A stretch of 64,000 bases of DNA, from the IMG/VR virus record IMGVR_UViG_3300045988_183866; one strand, written 5' to 3'. Below, in pieces: positions 15,001-52,776 of the stretch; within the stretch, counting starts at the first letter, position 1, and the number at the start of each line of letters is the position of its first letter. The notes under the pieces are model-generated. The model worked only from the letters and a program-made list of their open reading frames with translations. It searched no databases and was not told the DNA's origin. The translations under genes were made by a program, and so were the position numbers. Origin of the DNA: a virus.

Positions 15001-18000
15001 CTTGGACCATCGCAACGCTCGAATCCGGCAAGTCCATCGACATTACCTACACCTATACGATGCAGGCAAGCGATGAAACTGTTATTGAAAACACTGCCGA
15101 TGTGCGTTATAGCCACAACGGTACTGACTACAATATTCCGTCCAACCCGGTTGATGTTGAGAAGCCTAACGATGGTGTAGTTACCATCTTTAAGACTGCC
15201 GACAAGACCAAGGCTGAACCGAACGAGGTCGTTACCTATACAGTTACGATTCACAACGGTAAGGATTACAACATCAAGAATGTCCGTCTGACTGACGCGA
15301 ACAACTTCGCGGGCAAGATTGAGGGCGTTGACGGTGCTGGCTACAAGTTCATCAACGGCGAATTTGTCATTGACAAGATTCCTGCTGGCGGTGACGCAGT
15401 GGTTCACTACACCTACACAGTCCAGATTGCCGATGTTCCGACCAAGATTCTTGAAAATGTTGCAACGGCTCATGTCCCCGGCAAGAACCCCGGCGACCCT
15501 GACGAGGAGATTCCTTCCAACAAGGTCGATGTTGAGGTTCCCGGTGACGGCACGCACGTTGATGTGCCGGAAGGCAAGCTCGAAATCGTTAAGAGTGTAG
15601 ACAAAACGGAAGCCAAGGTTGGCGATACGCTGAACTACACGATTACGCTGACGAATGTTGGCGGACAGGCAGTCAAGAACGCTGTCGTCAAGGATTTCTT
15701 TGACGGTAACGGTGTCCTGAACTTCGTTCCGATGGACGGTGTGACGGATAACGGTGATTACACCTACACGGTTGCGAATGTGGAGAAGGGTCAGAGCATT
15801 ACGCTCCGCTTCACTTACACGGTCGTTGCCGGAGATGCGCCGATGGTCCTGAACGCTGCTGTTGTGAAAGACCCGACGCCTCCCGTTGACATCGAGAAGA
15901 CCGCAGACAAGCATGTAGCGATGGTCGATGAAGTCGTCAACTATACCATCACGGTGAAGAACACGACTGATAAGACCGTTACCGACCTGCTGGTCAGCGA
16001 CACCAACAACTTTACAGGCGCAATCACCTCTAAAGACAACGCCAAGTACACCTACAATGGCAACCATACTTGGACTATCCCCAGCATCAAGGCTGGTGAG
16101 AGCATCGATATTCTCTACACCTATACGGTGAAGACTACCGACCCCTCTACGCTGGTCAACGAAGCTGATGTTCGCTACACGACCGATGACGGCGAGTATG
16201 TCATCAAGGCAGACCCTGTTGAAGTCGTTGTCCCGAAGGATGGCGAAGTTACGATTGTCAAGAGCGGTGACAAGAAGATTGCAGAGCCCGGTGAGGTCGT
16301 GACCTACACGGTTACGATTCACAACGGTAAGGCGCATGACATCACCAATGTGGTCGTAAGCGATTCCAACAACTTTGCTGGAACGATTACCGGCACGAAT
16401 GGTGTCGGCTACAAGTTCGTTGACGGACACTTTGTAATCGATAAGATTGCTGCTGGTGCAGACGCTGTTCTGACCTACACCTACACGGTGCAGATTGCAG
16501 ATGTACCCACTCACATTCTGGAAAATGTTGCCACGGCACATGTGCCCGGCACGAATCCGGAAGACCCTGAGAATCCCGGACACGGCAAGGACCCGGATAA
16601 ACCGATTGACCCCGATACGGACATTCCGTCCAATAAGGTCGAAGTGGAAGTCCCCGGTTCCGAAGTTGAGACCGAAATTCCGGAAATCTCTATTACCAAG
16701 TCTGTAGATAAGCCTACTGCCAAGATTGGTGATACGCTAAACTACACCGTCACTGTCAAGAACGGCGGTAACGCGGATGCTGAGAATATCCTGATTAAGG
16801 ATTTCTTTGACGGAAACGGAACGCTGAACTTCAAGGCCATGGATGGCGTGACAGATAACGGAGACAACACCTACACTATTTCTACGGTCAAAGCAGGGGA
16901 GAGCGTAAAGCTTCGTTTCAGCTATGTTGTAGTTGAAGGAGACGAACCTCTCGTACTGAACGCCGCAGTAATCAAAGACCCGACACCGCCTGTTGACGTT
17001 GAGAAGGAAGCCGACAAGCACATTGCAAAGGTTGATGAGGTTGTAACCTACACGATTTCCGTGAAGAACACCACTTCTGAGCCTGTTGACAATGTAACTG
17101 TCACCGATACTAACAACTTCAAGGGCGAAATCAAGGCCGAAAACGCTGACAAGTACACTTACAATGGCAATAAGACGTGGACTATCCCGACTATTGCCGC
17201 TGGCGAGACCATCTATATCACCTACACCTATACGATGCAGGCTGAGGATGCCACCGTCATCGAAAACATTGCAAATGTGACTTACAGCAAGGATGGCACA
17301 GATTACAATATCCCCTCCAACCCCGTCGATGTCGAAAAGCCCGATGATGGTGTTGTCACCATCCGCAAGGCTGCAGATAAGACAAAGGCTGAGCCGGGTG
17401 AGGTTGTAACCTATACCGTCACGGTTCATAACGGAAAGAATCACGACATCGAAAACGCTCGTCTGACAGACACCAACAACTTTGCTGGCGAAATCGTAAG
17501 CGTTGACGGTGCAGATTACACCTTCGAGAACGGCGAATTCACAATCAATAAGATTCCCGCAGGCGGTGATGTGGTTATCCACTACACTTATACGGTTGAA
17601 ATTGCTGATGTGCCCACGCAGATTCTCGAAAACATTGCAACAATCCATGTTCCCGGCACGAATCCCGAAGACCCGAATAATCCGGGTCACGGCAAAGACC
17701 CCGAGAAACCCATTGACCCCGATACGGAGATTCCGTCCAACAAGGTTGATGTGGAAGTTCCCGGCTCTGAAACCGAAACAGAGATTCCTGTAATCGAAAT
17801 CACCAAGTCCGTTGATAAGGCAGAAGCCAAGGTTGGCGATACGCTCAACTATACGGTTACTGTCGCCAACAAGGGCAAGGTTGATGCGGAAAATGTTGTT
17901 GTCGAAGACTTCTTCGATGGCAACGGAACGCTCAACTTCGTGCCCATGGATGGCGTTGCGGATAACGGCGACAACTCCTATACCATCAGCACTGTAAAGG

Positions 18001-20073: not shown

Positions 20074-23000
20074 ATGCAGAAACCTCGTAAGCGGTTTTTG
20101 AGTGCGATTGTCGCCGTAGCAATGTGCCTGTCTCAGTTTGCTCCTGTCACTGCTTATGCAGTGGAGAGCGCGAGTGGAATCACGCAGAGTGAAGAAGCTC
20201 CGAAGGAAACTGATGCGCTCAGCACTACGACAACAAACTCCGACTCTTCCGCTACTACTCCCGCGCCGAAAAGCGATGTTACCGACACAGCAAGTTCCGC
20301 GTCCAGCGACACTTCTGTGACGAGCGATGTTTCTTCTGAGGCTACAAGTCAGGCGGGGTCTGAAACGACCACTGCCTACGCAAACAGTGCTGCCTCTGAT
20401 ACTGGTGCAAGCACCAGCACTTCCAGCGAAGCTTCTACCACTGGCAGCATCAGTGAAGCAGCACAGGCATTTATCGATGCGGCTAACGCCCTTGTAAGCC
20501 GTAAAGATGAAATTCTGACTGCTGCAAACAACTTCGGTCTTGCAAGCAAGGCATGGCAGGCTGACAAGGAAAACGCGGTTCTTGATGCGATGGTCACGCG
20601 TCGCACTGAGGAACTGGATGCAGTTTATGACTGGGAGCCCATTGAAGACATGTATTATTCTCTGAGCGAGGATGAGCAGGTCGCCGAGCCCGTCATGAAT
20701 GCATACCTTGACATGTCTGACCTGTATCTGCAGGTTTGCGACCGTCAGGAAAACCCCGTAGACAACAGCGGTGCCAGCGCGTTTGATGGCGGCGGTTCTA
20801 CGACTGTCATCGGGGACTATCAGGCAATCACCGCTGCTGAGACTGGTAAGCAGATTGCCGCAGGCACTGGTATTCAGTATACCAAGATTAGCGGTCAGGA
20901 GAATGTTATTCGCATTCTGCCTCAGACTGTTACCTACACCTACGGTGACTCCTTCAAGTCTAAGGGTCTGACCATCGAATACAGCACTGCTGATTCCCGT
21001 ACTCCTCAGGAAGTCCAGAAGGATATTCAGGCAGCTATCGACGGTCTGAGCTTCATCATGTACGCTCCTGCTGATGGTGACGGCCAGAATCCTACAGACA
21101 TTCATTGCAATCACGGTACTTATCCGACTTATGTTGATACGGGTGCCACAAGCGTTACTGTGAATGGTCTAAATTACACCATCATTGACGGTTCCAACTT
21201 GGATTCTTCCAAGAACATCCGCAATGACACGGGCGTGACTATCAACAAGCGTCAGATTTTCATTGTCCCTCATACCACTTATGTTACGAAGGGCAATACC
21301 ATCAGCCAGATTAACTACACCGTTATGGATACCAATGGTGGTCTGGTTGACGGCGACCTGCTTCCTGCGGATGTTCTGACCACAGAGAACTTTGATAAGG
21401 ACACTACCGGTTCTTACAAAATCATCTTAGGTTCCTCTGCGAAGAGCAACACGAACTACAACGTCGACATCCAGCCTAACACCGGCGATGTGTATGTTGT
21501 CGTTTCCGAAAAGACTCTGACCCTGACTCCCGTATTTGTCTTTAAGGGCAATGATGGCGTACAGACGACTGGCAGCAAAGCCACTCGTCAGTATGGTCAG
21601 CAGAACCCTCAGGTTGACTTCGTGATTACCGGCTGGTCTGATACTGATAAGACGAATTTCGAGTATAAGACCAATAATGAACACAAGTCCAATGCGGTTG
21701 CTCTGAAAGAAATGCTTGGTCTGAGCGGTGAACCCACCGTTGTTCTGCCCAGCATCACCTCTGCTCCCGGTGGCTATACTGTTACAATCGGCAATATCCA
21801 GACGAATGCGCCTATCAATGGTTATAACATCAACCTTGCTACCGCAACGTTTGAAATTACCAAGCGTAATGTAACCATCACCAACAATCAAATTGATGCC
21901 ATCTATGGTGAGGCTGAAAAGGGCAAGAATTCCACCATCACCTTGGACGCTGTTGCTTATAACGGTGCTGCTCAGGCAGTATCTTCTGAAGCACGTATTG
22001 TTACCGGTAAAGACATCACCGCCGATGACGGTGTGAATAAACTGGTCAGCATGGTTCTGACAACTCAGCGTCAGGATATTGACAACAAGAATGTTGGCGA
22101 ATATCCGATGACCGTTGAAGTTCCTCCTGCATGTACTGCTTACTATGACGTCAAGGTCATCAACAGCAAGTACATCATCCATCCTGCAATGCTGACTGTC
22201 ACTCTCGATGACCTGTCTGCAATGTATGGTGCTGCTCGTTCCGGCAAGATTAAATCCATCGAAGGTTTCAAGCTGAACGATACACAGGCAAGCATCGGCT
22301 TGACCGAGGACAAGCTTGGCTTTACTATGGTAGATGCGGCTGGCAACAGCGGCATTCCTACAACTGCCAATGTCGGCGAGTACAATGTTACCGCAAGCGT
22401 TATGGGCGCTTCTCAGGAGCGTTGGTCTCCTGATTGGGACATGAAAGCCGATGGTAAGGACTATGACCGTTTCGACAACTACCTCGTTCGCTTCGTTGAC
22501 AGCAAGCTGACCATCACCAAGCGTCCTATCGCCATCAATGTGATGGGTGGTCAGACGAAGGTTTACGGCGACAGTGATGCCAAGGGCGGCGTTGCCTTTA
22601 CTCTTGACCCCGTCAATGGCAAGGGTGGCCGTGTTGGTTCCGACTTTGCTGGCTGCGTTGTGACTCGTGAGGTCGGCGAGACTGTTGGCTCTTACGCTTA
22701 CAGCGATGCTCAGTTCCAGACTGCTGAAATCGCCAAGAACTACGACATCACCTTCAATGCTCCCGATAAGTACACTATCACCAAGCGTACTCTGACCATC
22801 ACCGTTCCGAACCGTGAGCGTCTGTATGGCGCAGAGAATCCCAGCGATGCCGACATTACCGGCGCACTGGAATACAAGAACTTCGCAAGCAACGATGAAA
22901 TTGGCATCCATGATACTGTCGCTTCTCTGGGCGGCACTGTCACCATCAAGTATGGCGTTGATAATACCGTTGGTAAGCTGACTGGTGTCGGTACCTATCC

Positions 23001-26000
23001 TATTGTTGTTTCCGGTTACACCAACCCCAACTACAACATCGTTTATACCGGTACTTACAGCGATGGTACAAGCGGTACGCTGACTATCAATGCACTGCCT
23101 GTCACCATCAAGGGTACTACCAACAGCGTCCGTAAGTACGGCGTTGCCGGTAAGAACACCCCCAGCTATGCGCTGTATGACGAGACCGGTTCTCAGGCTA
23201 TCAATGTGGTTGACCCGCAGGGCAGCCCGCTGAACATCCACATCGACCTGACCAAGTGGGAAGACCCCACCACGGTTGTTGGTAACTATGAGGCTACCAT
23301 CTCCTATGATGAGAACCCCAACTACATCGTAACGATTGCTCCGCAGGCTACGTTCCAAGTCACCGAGGCTGATGTCTCTGTCACCTTCAACGCACTGCAG
23401 ACTACTTACGGTGAGAAGAAGCCCGATACCATCGCCAAGGAAGTTTCCGTCAATGTGAATACCTCCGACGGCACTCAGATTTACCATGATGGCGAAACCG
23501 TCAACATCAAGATGGACGGCAAGGATGTTTCTCTGGGCGTTGTTCGTATCGCCGTTGAGGCTACTGCGAACGCTTCTGGTTTGTACGATGCAGGTTCTTA
23601 CAACCTGACCTTCCGTCTGGATAACCAGCCCGCAAACAGCGTTAAGCTGTCTGAGCCCGATGGCAAGAACATGCTGATTGTTCATCAGATGCCCCTGACC
23701 ATCACTCCTCGCTATGGCCTGTCCAAGACTTACGGCGAGACTGACCCCAGCTTTGCAGTCAACGATACTTATGTCATCTTCGACTACAACACCACCAGCT
23801 TCGCAGAGCCCAAGGCCGACTTCGCACAGGCTCGTCTGAGCCGTGAAGCAGGCGAGAACGCTGGCACTTATCCGATTTACAGCGGTAACATCTATGAGCA
23901 GACGATGGCAAAGAACTATCGTATCAGCTTCACCAATGATGTTCGCTTCACCATCAATAAGCGTACTGCCGTTATCAACCTGCTCGAAACCGAAAAGACC
24001 TATGGTGAGACCCTCACTTCTATGAACGTGAAGGATTACATCAAGGGCGGCACTGGTCTGCTGACTACTACTGATGTTCAGGCAGCAGAAGCCGAAAAGA
24101 TTCTTAAGGGCATTACCCTGACTTCCGGTGCAACTTCTGCTTCCGCAAGCGTTGGCACTTATGCTCTGAAAGCTATCTACGCACAGCCTGCCAACTACGA
24201 CCTGACGGTGATTGATTCTACCATCACCATCACTCCTCGTCCCATCACCCTGACTTTCTCCAACTACGAGAAGGATTACGGCGATGCAGACCCCGCATTC
24301 TCTTACAGCGAGATTTCCGGCAACATTTCCAACGATGGTCTGAAGAAGAATACGCTGGAACTGACTACTGGTGCTCTGAGCGGCTCTGTTACTCGCAAAG
24401 CCGGTGAGGATGTCGGTGAATACCCCATCAGCTCTACTCTGTACAACAAGTACGGCAACTACGCAATCACCATCGTGACTGGCTCCGGCACTTCCGTCGA
24501 CGTTGGTTCTTCCACCACTGAGCCCGAGGCTCTGGAAGTTGCTACTCTGACCATCAAGCCCGTTAAGGTCACCTTTACCGTGGCTGGCGGTTACTCCATG
24601 ATTTATGGCGGCACCGTTCCCACGTTCAGCTACACCGTTACTGGCTTGAAGAACAATGACACCGTTGCTTCCGCATTCACTGGCTCGGTTGTCTACAACA
24701 TCAAGAATGCTGACGGTTCTCTGTCCGAGATTCCTGCTCGTCCTGCTGCTGGCGATTATGTCATCACCATGAGTGGTCTGGAAAACAAGGGCGCAAAGAA
24801 CTATGACCCCATCGTCTTTGTTGATGGTTCTCTGCATGTCGATAAGCGCGATGTAATCGTGGTTGTTGACGAAGGCCAGAAGAAGGTCTACGGCGAGGCT
24901 GACCCCGAACTGACTTGGACTGCAACTGGCGACGGCGCTTACTATGTAAGCGAAGATGCAGGTGACCTTGCAAACCTGAAGGTTGTTCGTCCTGACGCTG
25001 GCACCGATGCTGGTGAGGATGTCGGCAAGCACCCGATGATTATCGAGGGCGATGATGTCAACTTCAACATCACCCGCGTAAACAACACCTTCGAAATCAC
25101 TCCTGCTACGCTGAATGTTACTCTGGCTCCCCAGAGCAAGATTTACGGCGATGAGAACCCTGTTCTCTCCGGCGACGACCTGATTTTCGATGGATTCGTT
25201 GTGAAACCCGTCAAGGGCAACACTACTCCTGATGACGCTGGTGTTCTGAGCATTGCAAACCTGACCTTCAACTTTACCGATGCTGAGGGAGCTCCCGCAA
25301 CGGTAGCTTCTCACGCTGGTACCGGCAAGGTCGTTCCTGCAAATGTTGAGAATGCCGCAGCAAACAACTACACCTTTGTTTACGCTCCCGTTGATTTTGT
25401 TATCGACAAGCGTCCCATCACTGTCACTGCTAAACCCCAGACTTCTATCTATGGCGACGATGTTGCTGTTGAAGATTGGTCTGATTACGGCACCGTGAAC
25501 GTTCTGGAATACACTGGTGACACTGCCAAGGCAGCTCTGGTCAATGGTGATATTCTGGAAGGCACGAACCTGTGCCTCGTCACTTCTGCAAGCCATGTCG
25601 GAGGCTATGACATTGTTCCTTCCTTCTCCGGTCTGGCTCACCGCGTCGGTCAGGCTTCTTATCAGGATTATCTGGTAACTGCTATGAACGGCACTTACAC
25701 GGTCACTCAGCGTCCTCTGACTTGGACCATCGGCACTGTTGGTTCTGTCTACGGCAATGAAATGGCCGAACTGAGCAATACCCTTACCTATACTGGTGAT
25801 GCCGATAAGAAGACCATCGTTAATGGCGATGACCTGAAAGCTATTATCAGCATCACTCAGAAGGATGTTGAGAACGCGGTTGCCGAAAAGATTTCCATGA
25901 AGTCTGCTGATGGTGCTGCTTCTCTGGTTGCGGAGAGCGTGCCCGAATCTGTCAAGAATTACGGTGCATACGACATGGTCGGTTCTTACGACAATGATGA

Positions 26001-28017
26001 TTACCTGATTACGATTGTTAATGGCGTTTATACCATTGGCGAGCGTCTGGTCGAAGTCACTGTCACCGAGCCCAAGGATATCGTCTATGGCGATACCACT
26101 AACCCCGACTTTACCGTAAATGCTGTTGCCACCAATGGCGATGGTACGCACGGTGCAGCTGTCAAACCTGATTCTCTGGGCCTGAAGATGGCACTTGTTT
26201 ATACTCCTTTCGAGAACGACAAGACCACCGACAATGCACAGACTGCTCCCTTGACTGCTGATGCAAAGGCGACTCTGACTCCTGATATCGCCAGCGGCGA
26301 TGACGGCGTGGAGAGCGACAGCCAGTTCAAGACCGAGAATGTCAAGAACGCTGGTACTTACACCTACACCGTTACCTCTGATTACGATGCTGCTGTTGAG
26401 CAGAATTACGCAGTAACAATCAATGTCGTCGATGCTGATAAGAACGAAGCCGATGGTCAGTTCGTTATCGCTCGCAAAGACCTGACGGTTACTCTCGACC
26501 CGAACCCCGTCGTCAAGCTGTATGGCACCAAGACGGAGATTCCCGAAATCAAGACCAGCGGTTACGCTTTCGACGAGACTGCTGAAACCGTTAAGCTGCC
26601 TTCCTTCGAACTCATTGTTGCTTCCAGCATCGATGGTATCTTCGGTAATGTTGGCTTGACGAAGGACGCTTTCAAGTATGTTGGCGGCGCTTACGACAAC
26701 TACAATTACCTGCCGACCACAGGAGACATCGAAGTTCAGCGTCTGCATCTTGCCGATGTAGAACCTGCAACTATCGTTGGTACTGTGGCTGACGAAAAGA
26801 CCGGTAAGCCTGTTGAGGTTACCAAGAAGACGACTGATGACCTGAGTGGCCTGTACTTCAACTCTAAGGTTGAAGTTATCGCTCCTAAGGGTTACGCAAT
26901 CGGAACCAGCGATTCCCTGACCGATGCTGAGTGGGCCGAGAAGATGGTCATTTCCGCTAATAGTGAGAAGGTTACTTCTACCTATTACCTGATTGACCTG
27001 AAGACAGGTGCCATTACCGAGATGGGAACTATCACCACATCTGTTGATACCGAAGCTCCTGTCGTTGCTTCTGCTTTCGCTGCCGATAAGGTTGATTCCA
27101 CCAATAAGACCGATTTGCTGAACGAGAAGTTCGTCAAGTTCGAGAGCACCATCAATGTGTTCATTACTGGTGAAGAGACCGGCAAGGCACCTGAGAAGGA
27201 AGACGACAAGAAGGACGATACCGATAAGAAGGAAGATTCCGACAAGAAGGATGAAACCGAATCCGGTACCGAGGAGAAAGTTCCCAGCGAGTCCGAGAAG
27301 ACCGAAACAACCGATGACAAGACCGAAGCCACTACGCTTCGTATTGCTCATGGTAAGCCCGCTCTCTTCACAACCGGCGACGAGACCGGTGATGAAAACG
27401 GTAACGATGTCGTTGCTACTCCCGACGAAAACGGTGGCAAGGATGATACCGAAGACCCCGACTTCGTGCCTGTTGTAAAGGTCAAGGATTCCGTTCCTGC
27501 TATCTCCGCTCTGGATGGCGAGTACAACTCCGGTGTCGCTAAGATTCAGTATTACAAGGTCAATGGTTCTGCTATTGCCAAGAGTGCTGAGGGCGATTAC
27601 ACCTTCGACGAAACCAAGTTCGAGACTGTCAATGTTACAAACATTGATAAGGACAACGGTTACGTTACCTTCAAGCTGAGCCCCGATTGGACTGGTTACA
27701 TTGTGACCCGTACAGTCGATAAGGCAGGCAACTACGGTGATGTTCGGGTAGCAAGTGTTAAGCTGGAGAATCCTCCGGAAGAAAGCAGACCGACTCCGAC
27801 TCCTGTAGTCAAGAATGAACCTGTTCCCACTCCGGCACCTGTTGTAGTCAACTACAAGACTGGCGTTGGTTTTGGCGCAGACATCATCGTTCCTGTTATC
27901 GTTGTTGTTGCTCTGATTGGCGTTGGCGCATTTGTCATCGTTAAGAAGAAGAAGGGCGATAGCGAAGATAAAGCTGCTGAAAAGACCGAGGATAAAACCG
28001 AGGAAAAGAAGCAGTAA
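20074..28017 (+). CDS. Giant cell-surface adhesin 2 (2647 aa). It has a signal peptide, a Ser/Thr-rich N-terminal region and at least 12 MBG/YDG-like KxYGxxDP modules. An acidic K/D/E region and a Pro/Thr stalk precede NYKTG, a TM helix and a Lys-rich tail.
   Basis: The RBS aggagg sits 7 nt before the ATG at 20074 (MQKPRKRFLSAIVAVAMCLSQFAPVTAYA|VESASG). The in-frame ATG at 20011 is a less likely start because it has no RBS. Motifs include RQYGQQNPQVDFVITGW, KVYGDSDAKGG, RLYGAENPSDADITG, KTYGETDPSFAV, KDYGDADPAFSYSEISG, KVYGEADPELTWTATG, KIYGDENPVLSGDD. The C-terminus is ..VVNYKTGVGFGADIIVPVIVVVALIGVGAFVIVKKKKGDSEDK.. Confidence 0.9.
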   Translation: MQKPRKRFLSAIVAVAMCLSQFAPVTAYAVESASGITQSEEAPKETDALSTTTTNSDSSATTPAPKSDVTDTASSASSDTSVTSDVSSEATSQAGSETTTAYANSAASDTGASTSTSSEASTTGSISEAAQAFIDAANALVSRKDEILTAANNFGLASKAWQADKENAVLDAMVTRRTEELDAVYDWEPIEDMYYSLSEDEQVAEPVMNAYLDMSDLYLQVCDRQENPVDNSGASAFDGGGSTTVIGDYQAITAAETGKQIAAGTGIQYTKISGQENVIRILPQTVTYTYGDSFKSKGLTIEYSTADSRTPQEVQKDIQAAIDGLSFIMYAPADGDGQNPTDIHCNHGTYPTYVDTGATSVTVNGLNYTIIDGSNLDSSKNIRNDTGVTINKRQIFIVPHTTYVTKGNTISQINYTVMDTNGGLVDGDLLPADVLTTENFDKDTTGSYKIILGSSAKSNTNYNVDIQPNTGDVYVVVSEKTLTLTPVFVFKGNDGVQTTGSKATRQYGQQNPQVDFVITGWSDTDKTNFEYKTNNEHKSNAVALKEMLGLSGEPTVVLPSITSAPGGYTVTIGNIQTNAPINGYNINLATATFEITKRNVTITNNQIDAIYGEAEKGKNSTITLDAVAYNGAAQAVSSEARIVTGKDITADDGVNKLVSMVLTTQRQDIDNKNVGEYPMTVEVPPACTAYYDVKVINSKYIIHPAMLTVTLDDLSAMYGAARSGKIKSIEGFKLNDTQASIGLTEDKLGFTMVDAAGNSGIPTTANVGEYNVTASVMGASQERWSPDWDMKADGKDYDRFDNYLVRFVDSKLTITKRPIAINVMGGQTKVYGDSDAKGGVAFTLDPVNGKGGRVGSDFAGCVVTREVGETVGSYAYSDAQFQTAEIAKNYDITFNAPDKYTITKRTLTITVPNRERLYGAENPSDADITGALEYKNFASNDEIGIHDTVASLGGTVTIKYGVDNTVGKLTGVGTYPIVVSGYTNPNYNIVYTGTYSDGTSGTLTINALPVTIKGTTNSVRKYGVAGKNTPSYALYDETGSQAINVVDPQGSPLNIHIDLTKWEDPTTVVGNYEATISYDENPNYIVTIAPQATFQVTEADVSVTFNALQTTYGEKKPDTIAKEVSVNVNTSDGTQIYHDGETVNIKMDGKDVSLGVVRIAVEATANASGLYDAGSYNLTFRLDNQPANSVKLSEPDGKNMLIVHQMPLTITPRYGLSKTYGETDPSFAVNDTYVIFDYNTTSFAEPKADFAQARLSREAGENAGTYPIYSGNIYEQTMAKNYRISFTNDVRFTINKRTAVINLLETEKTYGETLTSMNVKDYIKGGTGLLTTTDVQAAEAEKILKGITLTSGATSASASVGTYALKAIYAQPANYDLTVIDSTITITPRPITLTFSNYEKDYGDADPAFSYSEISGNISNDGLKKNTLELTTGALSGSVTRKAGEDVGEYPISSTLYNKYGNYAITIVTGSGTSVDVGSSTTEPEALEVATLTIKPVKVTFTVAGGYSMIYGGTVPTFSYTVTGLKNNDTVASAFTGSVVYNIKNADGSLSEIPARPAAGDYVITMSGLENKGAKNYDPIVFVDGSLHVDKRDVIVVVDEGQKKVYGEADPELTWTATGDGAYYVSEDAGDLANLKVVRPDAGTDAGEDVGKHPMIIEGDDVNFNITRVNNTFEITPATLNVTLAPQSKIYGDENPVLSGDDLIFDGFVVKPVKGNTTPDDAGVLSIANLTFNFTDAEGAPATVASHAGTGKVVPANVENAAANNYTFVYAPVDFVIDKRPITVTAKPQTSIYGDDVAVEDWSDYGTVNVLEYTGDTAKAALVNGDILEGTNLCLVTSASHVGGYDIVPSFSGLAHRVGQASYQDYLVTAMNGTYTVTQRPLTWTIGTVGSVYGNEMAELSNTLTYTGDADKKTIVNGDDLKAIISITQKDVENAVAEKISMKSADGAASLVAESVPESVKNYGAYDMVGSYDNDDYLITIVNGVYTIGERLVEVTVTEPKDIVYGDTTNPDFTVNAVATNGDGTHGAAVKPDSLGLKMALVYTPFENDKTTDNAQTAPLTADAKATLTPDIASGDDGVESDSQFKTENVKNAGTYTYTVTSDYDAAVEQNYAVTINVVDADKNEADGQFVIARKDLTVTLDPNPVVKLYGTKTEIPEIKTSGYAFDETAETVKLPSFELIVASSIDGIFGNVGLTKDAFKYVGGAYDNYNYLPTTGDIEVQRLHLADVEPATIVGTVADEKTGKPVEVTKKTTDDLSGLYFNSKVEVIAPKGYAIGTSDSLTDAEWAEKMVISANSEKVTSTYYLIDLKTGAITEMGTITTSVDTEAPVVASAFAADKVDSTNKTDLLNEKFVKFESTINVFITGEETGKAPEKEDDKKDDTDKKEDSDKKDETESGTEEKVPSESEKTETTDDKTEATTLRIAHGKPALFTTGDETGDENGNDVVATPDENGGKDDTEDPDFVPVVKVKDSVPAISALDGEYNSGVAKIQYYKVNGSAIAKSAEGDYTFDETKFETVNVTNIDKDNGYVTFKLSPDWTGYIVTRTVDKAGNYGDVRVASVKLENPPEESRPTPTPVVKNEPVPTPAPVVVNYKTGVGFGADIIVPVIVVVALIGVGAFVIVKKKKGDSEDKAAEKTEDKTEEKKQ

Positions 28018-38367: not shown

Positions 38368-38594
38368 CCGTTCCTGTCATTGGAAATACCAAGCAGCCAG
38401 TCAGACGAAACATGTAAGGCTTTTGCTAAATTGCATAGCATTTGTGCTCGCGGCATCGTCTTTCCTGACTCCCATTTTTGGATGCAGCGATAGGAACAAT
38501 TCGTGCTTGCCGCCAACTGTTCTTGGCTGTAATTGATTTCCATTCGTTGCTTTTTGATTCGCTTTCCTACCATGGTATCAAAGGTGGATGGCAT
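38364..38594 (-). CDS. XRE-family helix-turn-helix transcriptional regulator (Cro/CI-like, 76 aa)
   Basis: MVGKRIKKQRMEINYSQEQLAASTNCSYRCIQKWESGKTMPRAQMLCNLAKAL is a canonical XRE HTH. It is one of only two minus-strand genes in the island and is divergent from the par genes. Confidence 0.8.
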   Translation of the reverse strand: MPSTFDTMVGKRIKKQRMEINYSQEQLAASTNCSYRCIQKWESGKTMPRAQMLCNLAKALHVSSDWLLGISNDRNG

Positions 38595-38832
38595 AAATAA
38601 CTCCTTTCTTTTTTGTTGTCTATGCGAACAAAAGTTCGTTGCTGGACAACTGCATGTGTGGTATCATGATAACAACAGGCAGTTGTATATTAGTTGTTCT
38701 TTCCGTTTTAACAACCGCTATACATCAGTCAGTGAGTCCCATTGTTATCTGGTAGACACTTATATTTTATCACGCAGAGTATCCCAAAATTCGTACTTTC
38801 AACTATATTGCGACTCGTTCGGAGGATTTTTT

Positions 38833-39792
38833 ATGGAGATTATTGGAGTAGATACCGGAAACAAAGCAATGAAGACGCCTGGCTGTGAGCCGTTTCCCAC
38901 TGGTCTTGTTCGTCACGGTACGACTGAACCAGCTATCAAGGGAGAGACGATGTGCTACATGGGGAAGTATTATTCCCTCAATGACAGCCGCACGCCTTAT
39001 CAGCAGGATAAGACGAAGGATGATACTTACTTTTTGCTGACGCTGATTGCCGTAGCAAAGAACCTTATAAAGAAGTATCCCAATCAGAAATTCTACAAAT
39101 ACGATGTATGCCTCGCGATGGGCTTGCCCCCGCAGCATATGTCCCTGAAAGCGAAGTATGATGAGTATTTCGGCAAAAGCGGGAAACTCATCAATTTCAT
39201 GTACAAAGATATCCCGTTTGAGATTACTGTCAAGCATGTCTTTGTCTATCCTCAGGGCTTTTCTATTACGGCAGCAGGCGAGATTCAGAAGGAAATCAAG
39301 CGCTATCCTCGTTCTTATGTTGTAGACATCGGCGGGTATACCACGGATGTGATTCGTTTCTCTGGTCGTGGCAACACTTATGCTCCGGACCTTTCTTTCT
39401 GCGAAAGCTATGACCGTGGAGTCATTGAACTCCTGAGCACTGTCGAGAGCGAGCTGCGCGTCCATTGTTCCTTGTCGGTCGATGACTACATGGCTGAGGC
39501 AATCCTTGCAGGAAACAACAACATGCTGGTCGATGAAAACGCCGTGAAGATTGCCAAGGAAACCGCAGACAATTATGCAACAGCATTGATTCGCACGATT
39601 TCCGAAAAAATCAAGGACGATTTCAAAACATCCTATTTCATCTTTATGGGCGGTGGTTCTGCTATGATGCGCGAAAGCATCGAGCGAGCCATTGACACCA
39701 AGAACCTTTTCTTCTTGACGGATGTAACCGCGAATGCAAAAGGATATGAAATCATGGCTCGTGCAAAGCTGACCATGAGCGGTGAAATTTAA
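38833..39792 (+). CDS. parM: Actin-like segregation ATPase (ParM/StbA/Alp family)
   Basis: The RBS ggagg sits 8 nt before the ATG at 38833. MEIIGVDTGNKAMK is phosphate-1, VVDIGGYTTDVI is phosphate-2 and IFMGGGSAM is the adenosine motif. Length is ~320 aa. The upstream in-frame extension from 38533 is rejected. Confidence 0.75.
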   Translation: MEIIGVDTGNKAMKTPGCEPFPTGLVRHGTTEPAIKGETMCYMGKYYSLNDSRTPYQQDKTKDDTYFLLTLIAVAKNLIKKYPNQKFYKYDVCLAMGLPPQHMSLKAKYDEYFGKSGKLINFMYKDIPFEITVKHVFVYPQGFSITAAGEIQKEIKRYPRSYVVDIGGYTTDVIRFSGRGNTYAPDLSFCESYDRGVIELLSTVESELRVHCSLSVDDYMAEAILAGNNNMLVDENAVKIAKETADNYATALIRTISEKIKDDFKTSYFIFMGGGSAMMRESIERAIDTKNLFFLTDVTANAKGYEIMARAKLTMSGEI

Positions 39793-47599: not shown

Positions 47600-48289
47600 A
47601 TGAAAGATGCAGCAAAGAAATTCCGCAAGACCTGTGAGAAGTGCAACAAGCCGTTCAGCACCGCCAATGAGAGCGAGGTGCTGTGCCGCGAGTGTCGTAT
47701 GCGTGACGATTTCGCAAAGCGCCGCGCAGAGGATGAAGCTCGCAAGGAAGCTGATGCAAAGAGCAATGAGGTGTTTGAGACCCGCAAGTGCGTTGACTGC
47801 GGTCATGAATTCGACATCACCAATCGTGACCGCGATTTCTTCGAGAGTCACGGTTATTCTCTGCCGAACCGCTGCCCGGAATGCCGCAAAATTCATCGCG
47901 ACTTCGTGAAGCGCGGGCTGGATAACATCGGTCTGGAAGACACCTGCGCAGATTGCGGTCAGAAGCTGCAGTTTACCAATCGCGAGCTGTACTGGTATGT
48001 CGTCCATGACTACAAGCTCCCCACCCGCTGCAAGGCTTGCCGTGAAAAGCGCAATGAGCACTTCGCAAAAATCGCAGCAAAGAAAGTGACTGCTGATGGA
48101 GTCAAGGATGCGGTTATTGAAGCGCCCATCAATGAGTCGGTCGCAGAAGATGCCAATGTCCCCGCAATCACCGGGGATATTACTTCTCCCGCAGAGACTG
48201 TCACGGAAACTCCGGTAGAGGCCGCTGCCGAGACGGTTGCCGAGACCGCCTCCAATACGACTCCTGACGCCAACGGCGCATCCGCTTAA
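47600..48289 (+). CDS. Protein with three tandem zinc-ribbon modules
   Basis: The RBS aaaggaga precedes the ATG. Repeats are CEKCNKPF..CRECR, CVDCGHEFDITNRDRDFFESHGYSLPNRCPECR and CADCGQKLQFTNRELYWYVVHDYKLPTRCKACR. Confidence 0.5.
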   Translation: MKDAAKKFRKTCEKCNKPFSTANESEVLCRECRMRDDFAKRRAEDEARKEADAKSNEVFETRKCVDCGHEFDITNRDRDFFESHGYSLPNRCPECRKIHRDFVKRGLDNIGLEDTCADCGQKLQFTNRELYWYVVHDYKLPTRCKACREKRNEHFAKIAAKKVTADGVKDAVIEAPINESVAEDANVPAITGDITSPAETVTETPVEAAAETVAETASNTTPDANGASA

Positions 48290-48588
48290 TGTCGTCTTTG
48301 CACAGTTTCTGTATCGAGCTTCTAATTGTATACGGATTCTGTATTGCAACATGGGCTTTGTTTCGAACTTTGTTTGTGCTTAATCGCAACAAAATCAAGA
48401 AAAACCATGTTGACGGGGATTGCGACAGTAACAAAAAAGATGCTGCCGCAACAAATGTATTTGACGAAGGTATCGACAAACTCGATTGGTTCATGTGGCT
48501 TGCAACGAAGTTGGCCGTTGTAGCCTTTCTGATGCGAATCATCGTTGCTTTCTTTGCTCGATAATCTCAGTCGCGGAAGGAGTAAGCA

Positions 48589-49929
48589 TTGGACAACATT
48601 AAAAATCCGGCGAAAAAGCCGAAACTCAAAAAGTCTTATTCGAACAGCACTATCTTTCAGAAGCTGATGGTGGATGATGTTCGCAACAAGATTCTCTTCA
48701 CCATCCTTTGTCTTCTGATTTATCGTCTGGGTTGCGGTATTACGATTCCGTTCGTAAACACCGCTGCGCTTCAGACTATGTTCGGAAGCACCTCTGTACT
48801 GGATTATTACAATCTGGTTTCCGGTGGCGCACTTTCTCAGTGTGCGGTATTTGCGATTGGCGTATCTGCATACATCAACGCAAGCATCATTATCCAGCTT
48901 TTGACTGTTGCGATTCCGAAACTGGAAGAAATCAGCAAGGACATCGGCGGGCAGAAGCAAATCAATAAAATCACGCAGTATGTTGGTTGTGGTTTGGCGG
49001 TCGTAACAGCTATCGGGTACTTCTTTATTATGAAGAACTACGGTGCGATGAAATACACTTCCGGCATTTCGCAGGTTGTGGAAGCCATTACTGTTATTGC
49101 CATTCTGACTGCTGGCTCTCAAATCGTCATCTGGCTTGGATGGCTGATTGACGAAAAAGGTATTGGCAACGGTATTTCCCTTATCATCTTTACCGGTATC
49201 ATTTCCAGATGGGATGCTGTCATCTCGTTGTTCCAGAACTCTATTGCAATGGGCAAAGAAAATGGATGGTGGTATTATCTGATGATTCCCGGCATCATCC
49301 TCTTTGTTTTGGCGGCCACCTTCTATGTCGTTTTCGCAAGCGATGCAGAGCGCCGCGTTCCTGTTCAGTATGCCGGTAAAAATGTAGGGAACAAAGCATC
49401 CACTGGTCAGTCCAGTTATATCCCCATCAAACTGATTATGTCGGGTGTTATGCCTATTATTTTCTCGTCCACCATTTGCAGTATGCCGTCCCTCGTGACG
49501 ATGTTCCTCGATTACAACAAGCACCCCAGCCTGTATATGGCGCTGGCATCTTGGAATTCGCGGAATTGGATTTATGATGTTGCGTATGTAGCCCTGATTT
49601 TCGCATTCAACTTATTCTACATCGACATCACATTCGACCCCATCGAAATGGCAAACAACCTGCGCAAGAACGGCGGCAGTATCCCCGGTATTCGAGCAGG
49701 CAAAGCTACCAGTGATTATCTGCGCAATGCTTGCCATTCTCTCGCCGGTTCGGGAGCATTTGTTCTTTCGGTTATTGCATGTGTGCCTATCTTGGCAACT
49801 GCGGTTACAGGTCTGAACATGCACTTTGGCGGTACCAGTCTGTTGATTGTCACAGGTGTTACGCTTGAAGTTATCGATTCTCTTAACAGCCATTTGGTGG
49901 TTCGCCATCACAAGGGTTTCTTGAATTGA
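48589..49929 (+). CDS. secY2: Divergent SecY-family protein-conducting channel subunit (accessory SecY2-like)
   Basis: A TTG start sits 7 nt after the RBS ggaaggag. SecY hallmarks are present. GGALSQCAVFAIGVSAYINASIIIQLL matches LGImPYItASIIiQLL. KDIGGQKQINKITQYVGCGLAVVTAIGY matches KEGexGRrKIsqyTRY. GNGISLIIFTGI is present. C-terminal GGTSLLIVTGVTLEVIDSL matches GGTSLLIvVGVaLdt. About 10 TM segments. It is not in a ribosomal-protein/adk context. Confidence 0.85.
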   Translation: MDNIKNPAKKPKLKKSYSNSTIFQKLMVDDVRNKILFTILCLLIYRLGCGITIPFVNTAALQTMFGSTSVLDYYNLVSGGALSQCAVFAIGVSAYINASIIIQLLTVAIPKLEEISKDIGGQKQINKITQYVGCGLAVVTAIGYFFIMKNYGAMKYTSGISQVVEAITVIAILTAGSQIVIWLGWLIDEKGIGNGISLIIFTGIISRWDAVISLFQNSIAMGKENGWWYYLMIPGIILFVLAATFYVVFASDAERRVPVQYAGKNVGNKASTGQSSYIPIKLIMSGVMPIIFSSTICSMPSLVTMFLDYNKHPSLYMALASWNSRNWIYDVAYVALIFAFNLFYIDITFDPIEMANNLRKNGGSIPGIRAGKATSDYLRNACHSLAGSGAFVLSVIACVPILATAVTGLNMHFGGTSLLIVTGVTLEVIDSLNSHLVVRHHKGFLN

Positions 49930-49944
49930 CGGGAGGGCAACACA

Positions 49945-50199
49945 ATGGCAATTTATGAAATCATTCTGTGCATCTTGATTCTGTTGGTTTCTGTTCTGGT
50001 TTGTGCGGTTACGCTTTCCATGGATAAGGCCGACAAGAACAGTCTTAGTGTTATCACCGGAATCAGTGATACAATGCGCTCGAATGCTAAAGACAGCACG
50101 AAAACGTCCGCAAATAAACTGGTTGCTGTATGTACAGCTATTCTGCTTGTTATCGCAATCATCATGTTCGTAGTAACCGGAGTAGGAGGTGCGGCATGA
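49945..50199 (+). CDS. SecG-like small two-TM membrane protein (Asp5/SecG-like)
   Basis: 84 aa. TM1 IILCILILLVSVLVCAV, a polar loop DKADKNSLSVITGISDTMRSNAKD (cf. SecG KSAGLSGAISGGAEQLFG) and TM2 AVCTAILLVIAIIMFVV. It sits directly after secY2. Confidence 0.55.
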   Translation: MAIYEIILCILILLVSVLVCAVTLSMDKADKNSLSVITGISDTMRSNAKDSTKTSANKLVAVCTAILLVIAIIMFVVTGVGGAA

Positions 50200-50447
50200 A
50201 AGATAAACTGAAAAAGGTAGGAACGACTATTGCGAATTTCGTGAAGGCAATTCCTTCTTTCGTCAAGAGCACGCCTAAGAAGCTTCACAATTTGGTTGCA
50301 CCCAAAAATGTGACTTGGCCGAGTATGCACAACACGCTCCATCGAACCGGAGCAGTTCTTGTTGTGAGTGCTGTATCCGCCGTTATTATTGGCATTATGG
50401 ATGCGGCATACGCTCTGTTGCTTCACGTTCCGTTCCTGTTCGTTTAA
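50196..50447 (+). CDS. SecE-like small membrane protein (Asp4/SecE-like)
   Basis: The ATG overlaps the upstream stop (ATGA), and the RBS aggaggtg is present. KKLHNLVAPKNVTWPSMHNTLHRTGAVLVVSAVSAVIIGIMDAAYALL matches the SecE signature (kkVtWPsrkE + single TM). Confidence 0.55.
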   Translation: MKDKLKKVGTTIANFVKAIPSFVKSTPKKLHNLVAPKNVTWPSMHNTLHRTGAVLVVSAVSAVIIGIMDAAYALLLHVPFLFV

Positions 50448-50461
50448 AATACTGCCCCGGT

Positions 50462-50498
50462 AGGCAACCTGTCTGCCGGGGTCTTTTTTATAAAGGAG
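50462..50498 (+). terminator. Rho-independent terminator ending the secY2-secG-secE-like operon
   Basis: Hairpin ccccggtagg-caacctgtct-gccgggg followed by T6. Confidence 0.6.
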
Positions 50499-50505
50499 TT
50501 TTTTT

Positions 50506-51669
50506 ATGAAAAAAAATGCAAAAGAGATTTTGGCAGTCATCAGTGCCGCATGTATTGCATTGACCGCGTGTGGCAAAAACGTGACCGATGCAAGTACATC
50601 TGAGACTGCGGAAACAGCCACCTCCGAAACGGCGACCGCTATTGAGTATGACCTCGGTCTTGATGATGATGGGTATTTTCGCAATGTGACTGCATCCAAG
50701 TACATAAAAATGCCCAAGGATTATAAGGAGTATACGGTCAGCAAAGATGTATACGCCGTTACAGACGAGGAGATTCAAAATGAGTTGGATTATTTTCAGT
50801 CCAATTACAAGCTGACGACAGAGGTAACAGACCGCGCCGCACAGGAAGGCGATGTTGTGAACATTGACTATGAGGGTACGGTTGATGGTGTTGCTTTTAC
50901 CGGTGGAACAACAGAAGACTACGATTTGGAACTCGGTTCCAATACATTTATTGACGGATTTGAAGACCAAATCGTCGGGCATAACACGGGGGATTCGTTT
51001 GACGTCACAGTAACATTCCCTGATGGATATAGCAGTACAACAGATAGAACTACAGGCGAGCAGACTATCGAACTCGCCAACAAGGAAGCTGTTTTCCATG
51101 TAACGCTTAATAAAATTTCTCAATATAGCATGACAGATGCTGATGTTGCCGGTATCATGAGTGGCTACAAGCTGCAAGACGGTACTGCTGTAACCACAGT
51201 AGCTCTGCTTCGTGAATATGTTGAAGAGAATCTTCGGATGAATAAGATTCAGAATGAGATTGAACAGTATTTCATTGACAATGTAAAACTCAAAAAGGAT
51301 ACGACAGACCTTGTCAATCTGAGTCTTGAAACTAACTTGAAGTATGTCGAAAACGAAGCAACTGCCTACAATATGGACTTGGAGACATTCGTTCAGACAT
51401 ACAGCAATTATAAGACCTCGGAGGAGTATTCAGAAAGTCTTCGTAGTCAGACGGAAGAAAATGTTTTACTGAGCCTTGTTGCGCAGTATCTGGCAGAGGA
51501 ACAGGACTATAAACCGTCTGTCGATGAAGTGAAAGCTTATATTGGCAGTAACTACGATAACGCCGTTGATACCTATGGAGCAGGTCCTTTGGCACAGGAG
51601 TGTATGTATAACAAGATTATGGGCAACTACTGCATTGATGTGTACGAGCGGTCTGCCGCAGCTGAGTAA
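50506..51669 (+). CDS. Trigger-factor-like lipoprotein (FKBP-type PPIase domain plus TF C-terminal domain, with a lipoprotein signal replacing the ribosome-binding domain)
   Basis: The RBS aaggag precedes the ATG. MKKNAKEILAVISAACIALTACGK is a signal II / lipobox. AVTDEEIQNELDYFQSNYKLTTEVTDRAAQEGDVVNIDYEGTVDGVAFTGGTTEDYDLELGSNTFIDGFEDQIVGHNTGDSFDVTVTFPDGY closely parallels the trigger-factor PPIase domain (..GDrVtIDFtGsvDGeeFeGGkaedf.L.lGsg.mIpGFEdgi.Ghk.Ge.f.idVtFPe.Y). A TF-like C-terminal helical domain follows. Confidence 0.75.
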   Translation: MKKNAKEILAVISAACIALTACGKNVTDASTSETAETATSETATAIEYDLGLDDDGYFRNVTASKYIKMPKDYKEYTVSKDVYAVTDEEIQNELDYFQSNYKLTTEVTDRAAQEGDVVNIDYEGTVDGVAFTGGTTEDYDLELGSNTFIDGFEDQIVGHNTGDSFDVTVTFPDGYSSTTDRTTGEQTIELANKEAVFHVTLNKISQYSMTDADVAGIMSGYKLQDGTAVTTVALLREYVEENLRMNKIQNEIEQYFIDNVKLKKDTTDLVNLSLETNLKYVENEATAYNMDLETFVQTYSNYKTSEEYSESLRSQTEENVLLSLVAQYLAEEQDYKPSVDEVKAYIGSNYDNAVDTYGAGPLAQECMYNKIMGNYCIDVYERSAAAE

Positions 51670-51680
51670 GGTGATGTATT

Positions 51681-52652
51681 ATGGCAAAAACACCTATTAT
51701 TCCACCACTGCCCAAAGAAGAATATTTCGAGCAGGAACTTGGTGCGTACAATTACATTCCAAATGATGAGGATGATGGAACTGGTGAAAACTTCCCTCAT
51801 CAAAAGGCAAGCCATGACGAGGATGACAATGAATCGATGGATGCGATGGACGTGTCAGAGGGCAAAGAGAAACGGCGATTTTCCATCTGGACAGTTTTGT
51901 TGGTCGTAATTTGCATCGTTCTTATTGCCATGATTGGCTATATTGGATGGAAGGCGTATGATTACTATCATATTCCTGCATATGAAACAGGAGACATCTC
52001 CGACGATGTAGAAGAACCCGTTTCTACCCCCTCGATTCTTATCCCGTCTTCTAATTCAAGTGAGAGTGATTCAGAACCGGAACCGACACCAAAGCCAGCG
52101 TATTCCAAAAACACCGTTGGTTACTTAACCGTTCCCGGCGTTGATGTTACAGATGAGCCCATTTTGCAGCATCCCACAGACGATGATTATTACCTGACTC
52201 ACAATGAGTTCGATAGGGAAAGTATCTGGGGCGCTTATTTTGTTCCTTCCGAATGGAATGTCAGCAATGTTGACGATATGTACAGAGTAACTGTTATTTT
52301 TGGACATAGCAACGGAAATAGTATGCACAAGAAATTCAGTGTTTTGAAATACTTTCGCGATGTCAACTTTGCAAAGGAACATCGGTATATTTATCTTACC
52401 TTGGGTGAACAGCAGACACGATGGAAAATCTTTGCTGTTGCCGATTATCCTATTGACCCAAGTTATACCATTGCGAATCCGGATGATTCGTATTTCCTGA
52501 CAGAGATTGCAAGTATGAAAGCTTACTCTTACAATCAGTATGCCACAGAAGTTGGATTGAATGATAAGGTTTTGATTTTGTCCACCTGTTCAGGCAGTGA
52601 TAATTACGATACTCGTTTTATTGTATGTGCAAAACTTGACGAAGTCTTCTGA
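51681..52652 (+). CDS. srtB: Class B sortase (SrtB family) with an N-terminal cytoplasmic segment and a TM anchor
   Basis: TVGYLTVPGVDVTDEPILQHPTDDDYYLTHNEFDRESIWGAYFV matches SrtB (ivGWikl.gT.lnYPVlqg.dndyYL..dF.re....GsiFmD). VTVIFGHSNGNSMH is the catalytic His. VLILSTCSGSDNYDTRFIVCAKL is the TLSTC catalytic Cys plus the conserved Arg. TM helix WTVLLVVICIVLIAMIGYIGW. Confidence 0.9.
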   Translation: MAKTPIIPPLPKEEYFEQELGAYNYIPNDEDDGTGENFPHQKASHDEDDNESMDAMDVSEGKEKRRFSIWTVLLVVICIVLIAMIGYIGWKAYDYYHIPAYETGDISDDVEEPVSTPSILIPSSNSSESDSEPEPTPKPAYSKNTVGYLTVPGVDVTDEPILQHPTDDDYYLTHNEFDRESIWGAYFVPSEWNVSNVDDMYRVTVIFGHSNGNSMHKKFSVLKYFRDVNFAKEHRYIYLTLGEQQTRWKIFAVADYPIDPSYTIANPDDSYFLTEIASMKAYSYNQYATEVGLNDKVLILSTCSGSDNYDTRFIVCAKLDEVF

Positions 52653-52660: not shown

Positions 52661-52776
52661 TTGCATTATGCTGCGAAGTTAATATAATTGAGACATAACA
52701 TAAATCAAATGATTTAACTGTATTATTGCAATCGGCAACTGAGCCGCCAGTGGATTGTCCCATTGGCGGCTTTTTG
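52661..52776 (+). promoter_or_regulatory. Conserved-spacer promoter (copy g: TTGCAT-tATGCTGCgAAGTtaa-TATAAT) followed by a GC hairpin + T-run leader element
   Basis: -35 at 52661, -10 at 52683, then gacataacataaatcaaatg. Hairpin gccgccagtgg-attgtcc-cattggcggc followed by T5 at 52744-52775. The architecture matches copies c-f. Confidence 0.55.

Follow-up and report, generated by a model that had tools for sequence, protein, structure and literature searches.

The 64,000-nucleotide stretch of IMG/VR record IMGVR_UViG_3300045988_183866 (hereafter the window) encodes SecY, a SecG-like protein and SecE in one operon, followed by a trigger-factor-like lipoprotein and a class B sortase, and it also holds the genes of two giant surface proteins (Table 1). 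This module has already been described, with the same proposed role and interpretation, on conjugative megaplasmids named Hodors (Yuan et al., bioRxiv, 22 Feb 2026, PMC12934698), to which priority belongs. The window confirms that description and is no new kind of system, contrary to an initial annotation of this DNA, which had suggested that no such combination had been described. With moderate confidence we favour the joint reading that the window comes from a Hodor megaplasmid, resident in a Bacillota host of the human gut, on which a surface-display module is conserved, and that the plasmid channel, foldase and sortase would export, fold and anchor the giants.

Hodors are conjugative megaplasmids of 211-389 kb from the human gut that form two groups, G1 and G2, with GC contents of 47.1% and 44.6%; membership is defined by alignment to a G1 or G2 reference genome with a nucleotide identity of 90% or more across 80% or more of the length, and the circular genomes share a backbone of Rep_3, ParA, ParB, ParM/StbA and a type IV secretion system (T4SS) (PMC12934698). 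Their module consists of hyp-SecY-SecG-SecE-trigger factor-class B sortase and two giant proteins, >7300 and ~2642 amino acids (aa) long, that carry MBG (YGX-type) and S-layer-type domains and cell-wall sorting signals, and in metatranscriptomes SecY-SecG-SecE and trigger factor-sortase B form two co-transcribed units (PMC12934698). The giants are “probably” secreted via the sec-operon pore, with the trigger factor as their chaperone and class A and/or B sortases to position them (PMC12934698). The words “lipoprotein,” “SecA,” “LPXTG” and “ribosome-binding” were searched for in the main text of the preprint and do not occur there. What the present analysis adds to that main text is the reading of the trigger factor as a lipoprotein lacking the N domain, the housekeeping type of the SecY, the absence of a SecA motif, the sorting signals NKKTG, NYKTG and QAPTG, and secYGE operons in distant elements with 55-71% SecY identity. 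In the literature searched, the preprint was the only report found of a natural plasmid-borne secY-secG-secE operon.

The window is identified as Hodor DNA because its gene set and order match those in PMC12934698, DNA that is 97-99% identical lies on IMG/VR contigs of 241-346 kb, ParM/Alp7A and Dam genes are present, and SecY homologues occur on contigs of 270-389 kb. Its DNA is 96-99% identical over ~20 kb to three IMG/VR contigs (89, 241 and 346 kb), and the SecY homologues on the 270-389 kb metagenomic contigs are 89-99% identical to the window SecY. Nearly all of its genes lie on the same strand and the majority have no family match; the matches obtained include a ParM/Alp7A-like actin, a Dam methylase, a flotillin and a PIN7 protein, the first of these being the sole Hodor backbone-type gene that Pfam detects inside the window. 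The GC content of the comparable region is 43.6% in the window versus 48-49% in a second group of loci whose DNA is ~75% identical, and judged by GC the window probably belongs to G2. A DNA search with the 4-kb region returned nothing from PLSDB and only a 65-bp fragment from INPHARED, collections that do not include Hodors. Among GTDB representative genomes a SecY query found nothing, and a sortase alignment query found only sortases of 28-31% identity, in metagenome-assembled genomes of Oscillospiraceae and Eggerthellaceae, with no sec genes nearby.

In ordinary genomes secY lies in the spc ribosomal operon, secE accompanies nusG and secG stands alone. The window secY is not in a spc operon, in contrast to that of E. 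coli and to a Gemmiger-like SecY (locus L017) that occupies the usual rpl-secY-adk-map operon, and the non-housekeeping context proposed in the initial annotation is borne out. The idea that the window is mis-binned or mis-assembled chromosomal DNA, with SecY as the housekeeping gene of the host, can be given next to no credence. It would account for the SecY passing the housekeeping model, and PLSDB records matching SecY in protein mode, all <46% identical, include several of megabase size or with rplO or adenylate kinase next to secY; those records are probably chromosomal DNA filed as plasmids. Matches from the phage collection in the same mode were also <46% identical, many being short unannotated fragments or Salmonella whole-genome-shotgun records. 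The chromosomal explanation is refuted by the setting of the gene and by how that setting recurs: the open reading frame (ORF) list and family scans place no adk, map or ribosomal-protein gene next to the window secY, plasmid partition genes are adjacent, and the context is repeated on many independent contigs of 270-389 kb from different samples. In ordinary bacteria, moreover, secE and secG are unlinked to secY. The Hodor genomes were reported as circular and curated (PMC12934698).

By sequence, the window SecY is of housekeeping type and not a SecY2. It scores 291.9 bits with PF00344 and 329.8 with the housekeeping equivalog TIGR00967 (cutoff 253.6), whereas both SecY2 models fail (TIGR02920, 147.4 against 249.6; NF009082, 146.2 against 353), so that the “divergent SecY paralogue” akin to accessory Sec of the initial annotation is not upheld. 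The protein aligns end to end with the solved SecYs of Aquifex, Thermotoga and Geobacillus. Relative to E. coli SecY, the pore-ring residues I86, I187, I191, I278 and I408 are identical, with V in place of I82; R357 is kept, and the C4 loop “AERRVPVQYA” and the C5 loop “GGSIPGIRAG” are present. The TTG start is preceded by the ribosome-binding site (RBS) GGAAGGAG. Hodor-type SecYs have a basic N-terminal extension of ~17-20 residues (MDNIKNPAKKPKLKKSYSNS..., within residues 1-27, 48589-48670) that is absent from chromosomal Oscillospirales SecYs, and in transmembrane (TM) segment 2b they have an Ala where Pro84 (E. coli numbering) is otherwise widely conserved. The closest chromosomal SecY relatives found are those of Gemmiger (49% identity) and Subdoligranulum (45.5%). 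The loci of the nearest chromosomal relatives of SecY (Gemmiger, L017) and of the foldase (Faecalibacterium, L018) have ~58% GC versus ~44% for the plasmid region, and the likeness of the two proteins to these genera may reflect gene ancestry rather than the present host.

The accessory Sec (SecA2/SecY2-type) systems come to mind because a second SecY, accompanied by two small membrane proteins, is encoded close to very large surface proteins; the small proteins would then be equivalents of Asp4 and Asp5, the streptococcal components regarded as SecE- and SecG-like. This interpretation has been rejected and carries very little probability: besides the failure of the SecY2 models, the SecE passes a bona fide SecE model, the 64-kb window contains no SecA2, Asp1-3 or glycosyltransferase (Gtf) genes, an absence that the initial annotation had already pointed out, no SecA Walker-A motif was found on the seven Hodor-type contigs, and the giants are MBG/DUF11 repeat proteins rather than serine-rich repeat glycoproteins.

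The five genes of the initial annotation, from secY to the sortase gene, are all present as ORFs, and good support from hidden Markov models (HMMs) or structure exists for the SecY, SecE, trigger-factor-like and sortase identities. SecE lies above both curated cutoffs (PF00584, 33.4 against 22.7; TIGR00964, 30.9 against 27.55), and its family profile matches solved SecE chains with an E-value of 6e-6. For the SecG-like protein the proposed resemblance holds in part: it has two TM segments and its best match is SecG, at scores short of the curated thresholds (PF03840, 18.8 bits, gathering score 29.2; TIGR00810, 20.4, cutoff 30.85). Among homologues from divergent elements SecG alone recurs as a family match, in all five of them (best E 7.7e-7), as it does in three of six further representatives, and the gene keeps its operon position in five diverged elements. 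The family profile matched no solved SecG in the PDB, and a single-sequence search of 1.84 billion representatives retrieved only 10 relatives. Membership in SecG is therefore consistent with the matches but sub-threshold, and the assignment is weaker than those of the other four proteins.

Two transcription units, secYGE and the trigger-factor-like gene with srtB, can be inferred from RBSs, an ATGA overlap and two terminators. The initial annotation had placed ATGA overlaps at both junctions of the small genes; the overlap exists between secG and secE (50196-50199), whereas 15 nt with a GGGAGGG RBS lie between the end of secY and the secG-like ATG. The terminator that it had predicted after secE is present, with a 13-bp stem and T-run, and the start of the lipoprotein gene beyond it is preceded by an AAGGAG RBS. 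These two units agree with the co-transcribed units in the metatranscriptomes of PMC12934698.

Plasmids with DNA identities of ~75% or lower retain the arrangement of the module, and the sec operon, foldase and SrtB are contiguous in three diverged lineages. On a 296-kb contig (L004) the secY-secG-secE operon, with 59% SecY identity, retains hyp, foldase and SrtB, and in a more distant element (L013, 55% SecY identity) a sortase lies upstream. In G1-like plasmids the sec operon, foldase and SrtB all fall within 6 kb of the giant genes, giant gene 2 being ~5.8 kb from secY. Comparison of the two groups gives dN/dS values of 0.05 for secY, 0.09 for secG, 0.08 for secE and 0.11 for hyp, ratios that were computed for some gene pairs only and with dS saturated for most; these four genes are under strong purifying selection.

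The trigger-factor-like protein was confirmed as what had been proposed, a lipoprotein built from the FKBP and C-terminal domains of trigger factor. It scores 60.1 bits with FKBP_C and 21.8 with Trigger_C, just under the gathering score of 22.7, and 172.4 with TIGR00115 (cutoff 180.2), where only profile positions 108-371 are aligned; Pfam and NCBIfam scans found no Trigger_N ribosome-binding domain. Its AlphaFold2 (AF2) model has a mean predicted local distance difference test score (pLDDT) of 85.8, with residues 1-44, including a Thr/Ser/Glu-rich tether, disordered, and trigger factors (E. coli, Vibrio, Thermotoga, chloroplast) take all of the first eight places among its PDB matches, with E-values of 2.5e-11 to 4e-9 across ~300-346 aligned columns. 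The N-terminus combines a basic n-region, a hydrophobic core and a lipobox L-T-A-C whose Cys22 is kept in at least 90% of 25 homologues. Because of the lipobox with its conserved cysteine, the disordered tether and the missing N domain, the protein should act on the outer side of the membrane as a lipoprotein.

That it is instead a cytoplasmic trigger factor appears highly unlikely. The sequence and fold are those of a trigger factor, and cytoplasmic trigger-factor-like chaperones that lack the N domain do exist, PceT being an example. This possibility was rejected on the lipobox, the tether and the lack of an N domain, and the chromosomal homologues in Faecalibacterium share the lipoprotein N-terminus. 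Those of Faecalibacterium prausnitzii, at 39% identity, likewise lack the N domain and are ordinary chromosomal genes; one lies amid metabolic genes on a 3.1-Mb chromosome, and one homologue cluster comprises 2497 member sequences. In F. prausnitzii CP186691.1 (P0192, L018 7001-8143; also P0206) a stand-alone 380-aa “trigger factor” is such an N-domain-less lipoprotein, with lipobox AAGC. Because like lipoproteins are ordinary chromosomal genes in Faecalibacterium, the type is not restricted to the plasmid and would appear to be a native envelope foldase of this clade that was recruited by the plasmid. The Faecalibacterium proteins may, by analogy with PrsA, constitute an unstudied family of extracytoplasmic FKBP foldases, and a literature search found no paper on a trigger-factor-like lipoprotein family. 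In an 88-kb relative (L003, 11879-13188) the trigger-factor-like gene is called as a 212-aa FKBP-only product plus a 192-aa ORF, compared with a single 384-aa gene in L004; a frameshift, a pseudogene or faulty assembly may account for the split.

The last gene of the second unit was assigned to the SrtB family initially, and its modelled structure identifies the product as a class B sortase. Sequence models are less decisive, with no match to PF04203 and 77.9 bits against a cutoff of 153.75 for TIGR03064 (srtB); relatives at 45-55% identity do carry PF04203. In the AF2 model, where pLDDT is 76.5 overall and >90 across most of the catalytic domain, the first 19 PDB matches are all SrtB (E 5e-16 to 3e-11) and sortases of classes A, C and E appear from E 4e-7; the top 12 matches superpose with a root-mean-square deviation of 2.3-2.9 Å and TM-scores to the target of 0.66-0.85. 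His209, Cys303 and Arg312 are invariant in 21 homologues.

Both giants end in candidate sorting signals. Giant 1, listed as a 6514-aa ORF that runs past the window start, corresponds to the >7300-aa Hodor protein and terminates in ...SNKKTGIGF, a hydrophobic helix and HKRKK; it carries MBG_2 domains, ~22 DUF11 repeats, DUF7507 and CARDB. Giant 2 corresponds to the ~2642-aa protein, has four MBG_2 domains and the signal peptide MQKPRKRFLSAIVAVAMCLSQFAPVTAYA, and ends in ...NYKTGVGF, a TM helix and KKKK, while its G1-like counterpart carries ...QAPTGVGL. SrtB is favoured as the anchoring enzyme because N-x-K-T-G resembles class B signals such as NPKTG more than it does LPXTG. The giants are linked to the module because synteny is kept in the G1-like and 59%-identity lineages and because both giants have non-LPXTG signals.

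Set beside the observed gene identities, topology signals, operon structure, conservation and plasmid context, a mechanism can be proposed in which the plasmid SecYEG would insert in the host membrane and, driven by host SecA and/or the ribosome, would export the two giant repeat proteins by way of their ordinary Sec signal peptides. Host SecA or the ribosome is invoked given that the loops which bind them are intact and that the plasmid DNA yielded no SecA. On the outer face the trigger-factor-like lipoprotein would hold or fold the emerging chains, a PrsA-like job done with trigger-factor parts, before SrtB would cleave the [N/Q]-x-x-T-G signal and attach the giants to peptidoglycan. Joint carriage of channel, foldase and sortase would make display of the giants largely independent of the host and spare the host translocon. 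The module had been called self-contained, which did not hold: there is no SecA-sized ORF in the 64-kb window, and the SecA Walker-A motif M[K/R]TGEGKT, found in 52 IMG/VR contigs, matched none of seven Hodor-type contigs, including those of 346 and 389 kb, in one exact-motif scan that is supportive and not proof. Because of these two results a host motor would seem to be needed.

A further-reaching version of the mechanism, which we offer tentatively and consider rather unlikely as a whole, would have the lipoprotein form a trans-side cradle at the exit of the plasmid SecYEG, mirroring trigger factor at the ribosomal tunnel. Together with SrtB it would constitute a substrate-dedicated, host-independent assembly line for megadalton proteins across distant Bacillota, and its Faecalibacterium relatives would represent an unstudied class of foldase that replaces or complements PrsA.

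A number of points weigh against the favoured reading. We infer the link of the plasmid SecYEG to the giants from sequence, and the signal peptide of the giants looks ordinary, so the host channel could serve them. The initial annotation had placed the module beside giant adhesins, and this stands as regards synteny in diverged relatives and sorting signals, but in the window itself secY starts 20.5 kb beyond the end of the giant genes, with ~20 unrelated genes between. The support for SecG is below threshold, the signal of the G1-like giant 2 is QAPTG and not NxKTG, and Hodors encode class A sortases elsewhere, with class C in G1 too, so that SrtB is not the sole candidate (PMC12934698). One element (L015, 71% SecY identity) has secYGE without an adjacent foldase and sortase, showing that the triad can stand alone; the GTDB representative genomes contain no Hodor, and the SecA result comes from the single motif scan.

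The ordinary signal peptide and the stand-alone triad of L015 lend themselves to the main rival explanation, in which the SecYEG would be a general translocon supplement, or host-range insurance, for all envelope proteins of the plasmid (lipoproteins, T4SS parts and small membrane proteins), or would add channel capacity in Bacillota recipients, with the trigger-factor-like foldase and SrtB as separate accessories. The housekeeping type of the SecY, with unchanged pore ring and loops, would suit such a role, as would the separate transcription units of secYGE and the foldase-sortase pair, the different layout in L013, and the many membrane proteins and lipoproteins encoded in the window; the distance of the giants from secY points the same way, yet it shrinks to ~5.8 kb in G1-like loci. 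The contiguity of sec operon, foldase and SrtB in three diverged lineages, within 6 kb of the giants in G1-like plasmids, argues for the opposite, and sec, foldase and SrtB are among the few genes common to both Hodor groups, together with the giants (PMC12934698). We regard the general-supplement explanation as possible but doubtful and prefer to think in terms of export, folding and anchoring of the giants, an idea of the initial annotation that remains reasonable on the sequence evidence.

Table 1. Positions of the module, the giant genes and associated features in the 64,000-nucleotide window.
Feature	Position	Strand	Size	Remarks
Giant surface protein 1	3..19646	+	C-terminal 6547 codons	No in-frame stop from base 3; window edge cuts gene
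Giant surface protein 2	20074..28017	+	2647 aa	AGGAGG RBS before ATG at 20074
ParM/Alp7A-like actin-type plasmid segregation protein	38533..39792	+		Pfam MreB-like_C, ALP_N, Alp7A_like_C
“hyp” upstream gene, zinc-ribbon protein	47600..48289	+		PF13451 zf_Tbcl, 40.5 bits; no TM predicted
Possible two-TM ORF between hyp and secY	48289..48564	+	91 aa	Two hydrophobic segments; uncertain
SecY, housekeeping-type sequence in plasmid context	48589..49929	+	446 aa	HMM scores, full-length alignments
SecG-like two-TM protein	49945..50199	+	84 aa	Sub-threshold recurrent SecG matches; TM residues 6-24 and 59-77
SecE, single-TM type	50196..50447	+	83 aa	Above Pfam and NCBIfam cutoffs
Intrinsic terminator ending secYGE operon	50454..50482	+		13-bp stem with 8 G-C pairs, then T-run
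Trigger-factor-like lipoprotein	50506..51669	+	387 aa	Signal peptide, lipobox LTAC (Cys22), ~22-residue tether, FKBP, trigger factor C-terminal “arms”
Class B sortase	51681..52652	+	323 aa	Acidic cytoplasmic N-tail of ~65 aa, one TM helix, catalytic domain
Intrinsic terminator ending trigger-factor-like/srtB unit	52741..52772	+		13-bp stem with 8 G-C pairs, T-rich tail

Upstream of secY lies a gene that is probably the “hyp” of PMC12934698. Its product has three CxxC...CxxC treble-clef zinc-ribbon repeats and a low-complexity tail, is predicted to be cytoplasmic, and gave no informative NCBIfam or PDB match; the gene is kept upstream of secY in L001 and L004 and is conserved across three diverged lineages. 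The possible 91-aa ORF that follows overlaps the hyp stop as TAATG and has no family match. It occurs only in window-type loci (L006-L008, 100% identical) and is absent from the G1-like group, where the hyp-secY gap is 85 nt. For the ParM/Alp7A-like gene, the L004 homologue is 321 aa long and the BLAST alignment begins at 38828, and the true start probably lies near that position.

The interval between giant gene 2 and secY (28018-47599) spans ~20 kb in the window versus ~5.8 kb in G1-like loci, and the additional DNA includes a flotillin/SPFH gene (31242-32777), the Dam methylase (34446-34964), the ParM/Alp7A-like gene and a weak CpaB/SAF-like protein (43060-44121). The region downstream of the giant genes also encodes, at 29798-30877, a secreted protein anchored by a C-terminal TM segment; its homologue of 28% identity (L013, 57-995) adjoins a sortase in a distant secYGE-carrying element, a pairing which suggests that the surface module is shared beyond its named genes. 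Directly past the srtB terminator are tandem paralogues of a small membrane protein without family match (52816-53145, 109 aa; 53186-53518, 110 aa; ~49% identical).

A mobile element with its own complete SecYEG channel is very unusual. If the module does export, fold and anchor the giants independently of the host, it would explain how a 350-kb plasmid remodels the surfaces of diverse gut Bacillota, and it would amount to a natural “portable surface display kit.” The lipoprotein reading shifts the picture from chaperoning before export to folding after export, and it draws attention to an uncharacterised family of foldases in Faecalibacterium and other abundant anaerobes of the gut. The remaining interest lies in this extracytoplasmic trigger-factor-like lipoprotein, in the apparent dependence on host SecA and in the wider spread of mobile secYGE operons.

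Among known systems, the Hodor module of PMC12934698 has the same gene list and order, giants, ParM-type gene, gut origin, size class and proposed role; the window is a member, and nothing essential differs. The accessory Sec systems of streptococci, staphylococci and lactobacilli are alike in having a second SecY with small SecE/SecG-like partners away from the housekeeping locus and very large cell-wall-anchored adhesins, whereas the window module is plasmid-borne, includes a foldase and a sortase, has no SecA2, Asp1-3 or Gtf and lacks serine-rich substrates. With housekeeping SecYEG it shares a SecY and a SecE that pass equivalog models and a conserved pore ring, R357 and C4/C5 loops; it departs from it in the gathering of the three genes into one plasmid operon outside spc, in the N-extended SecY and in the strongly diverged SecG. 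PrsA resembles the trigger-factor-like protein as a lipid-anchored, extracytoplasmic peptidyl-prolyl isomerase (PPIase) and chaperone that receives Sec-exported proteins, but its PPIase domain is a parvulin rather than an FKBP. Trigger factor itself provides the FKBP PPIase and the C-terminal “arms” domain (best fold match E 2.5e-11), and differs in being cytoplasmic and in possessing the ribosome-docking N domain. Signals of SrtB enzymes include NPQTN in S. aureus, NPKTG in B. anthracis and (S/P)PxTG in C. difficile. The window sortase shares with class B enzymes the SrtB fold, the His-Cys-Arg triad, type II topology and non-LPXTG candidate signals ending in K-T-G, but it has a diverged sequence, a long acidic N-tail and a motif without Pro at position 2, and its candidate substrates are megadalton repeat proteins, in place of the haem-uptake proteins or pilins handled by known class B sortases.

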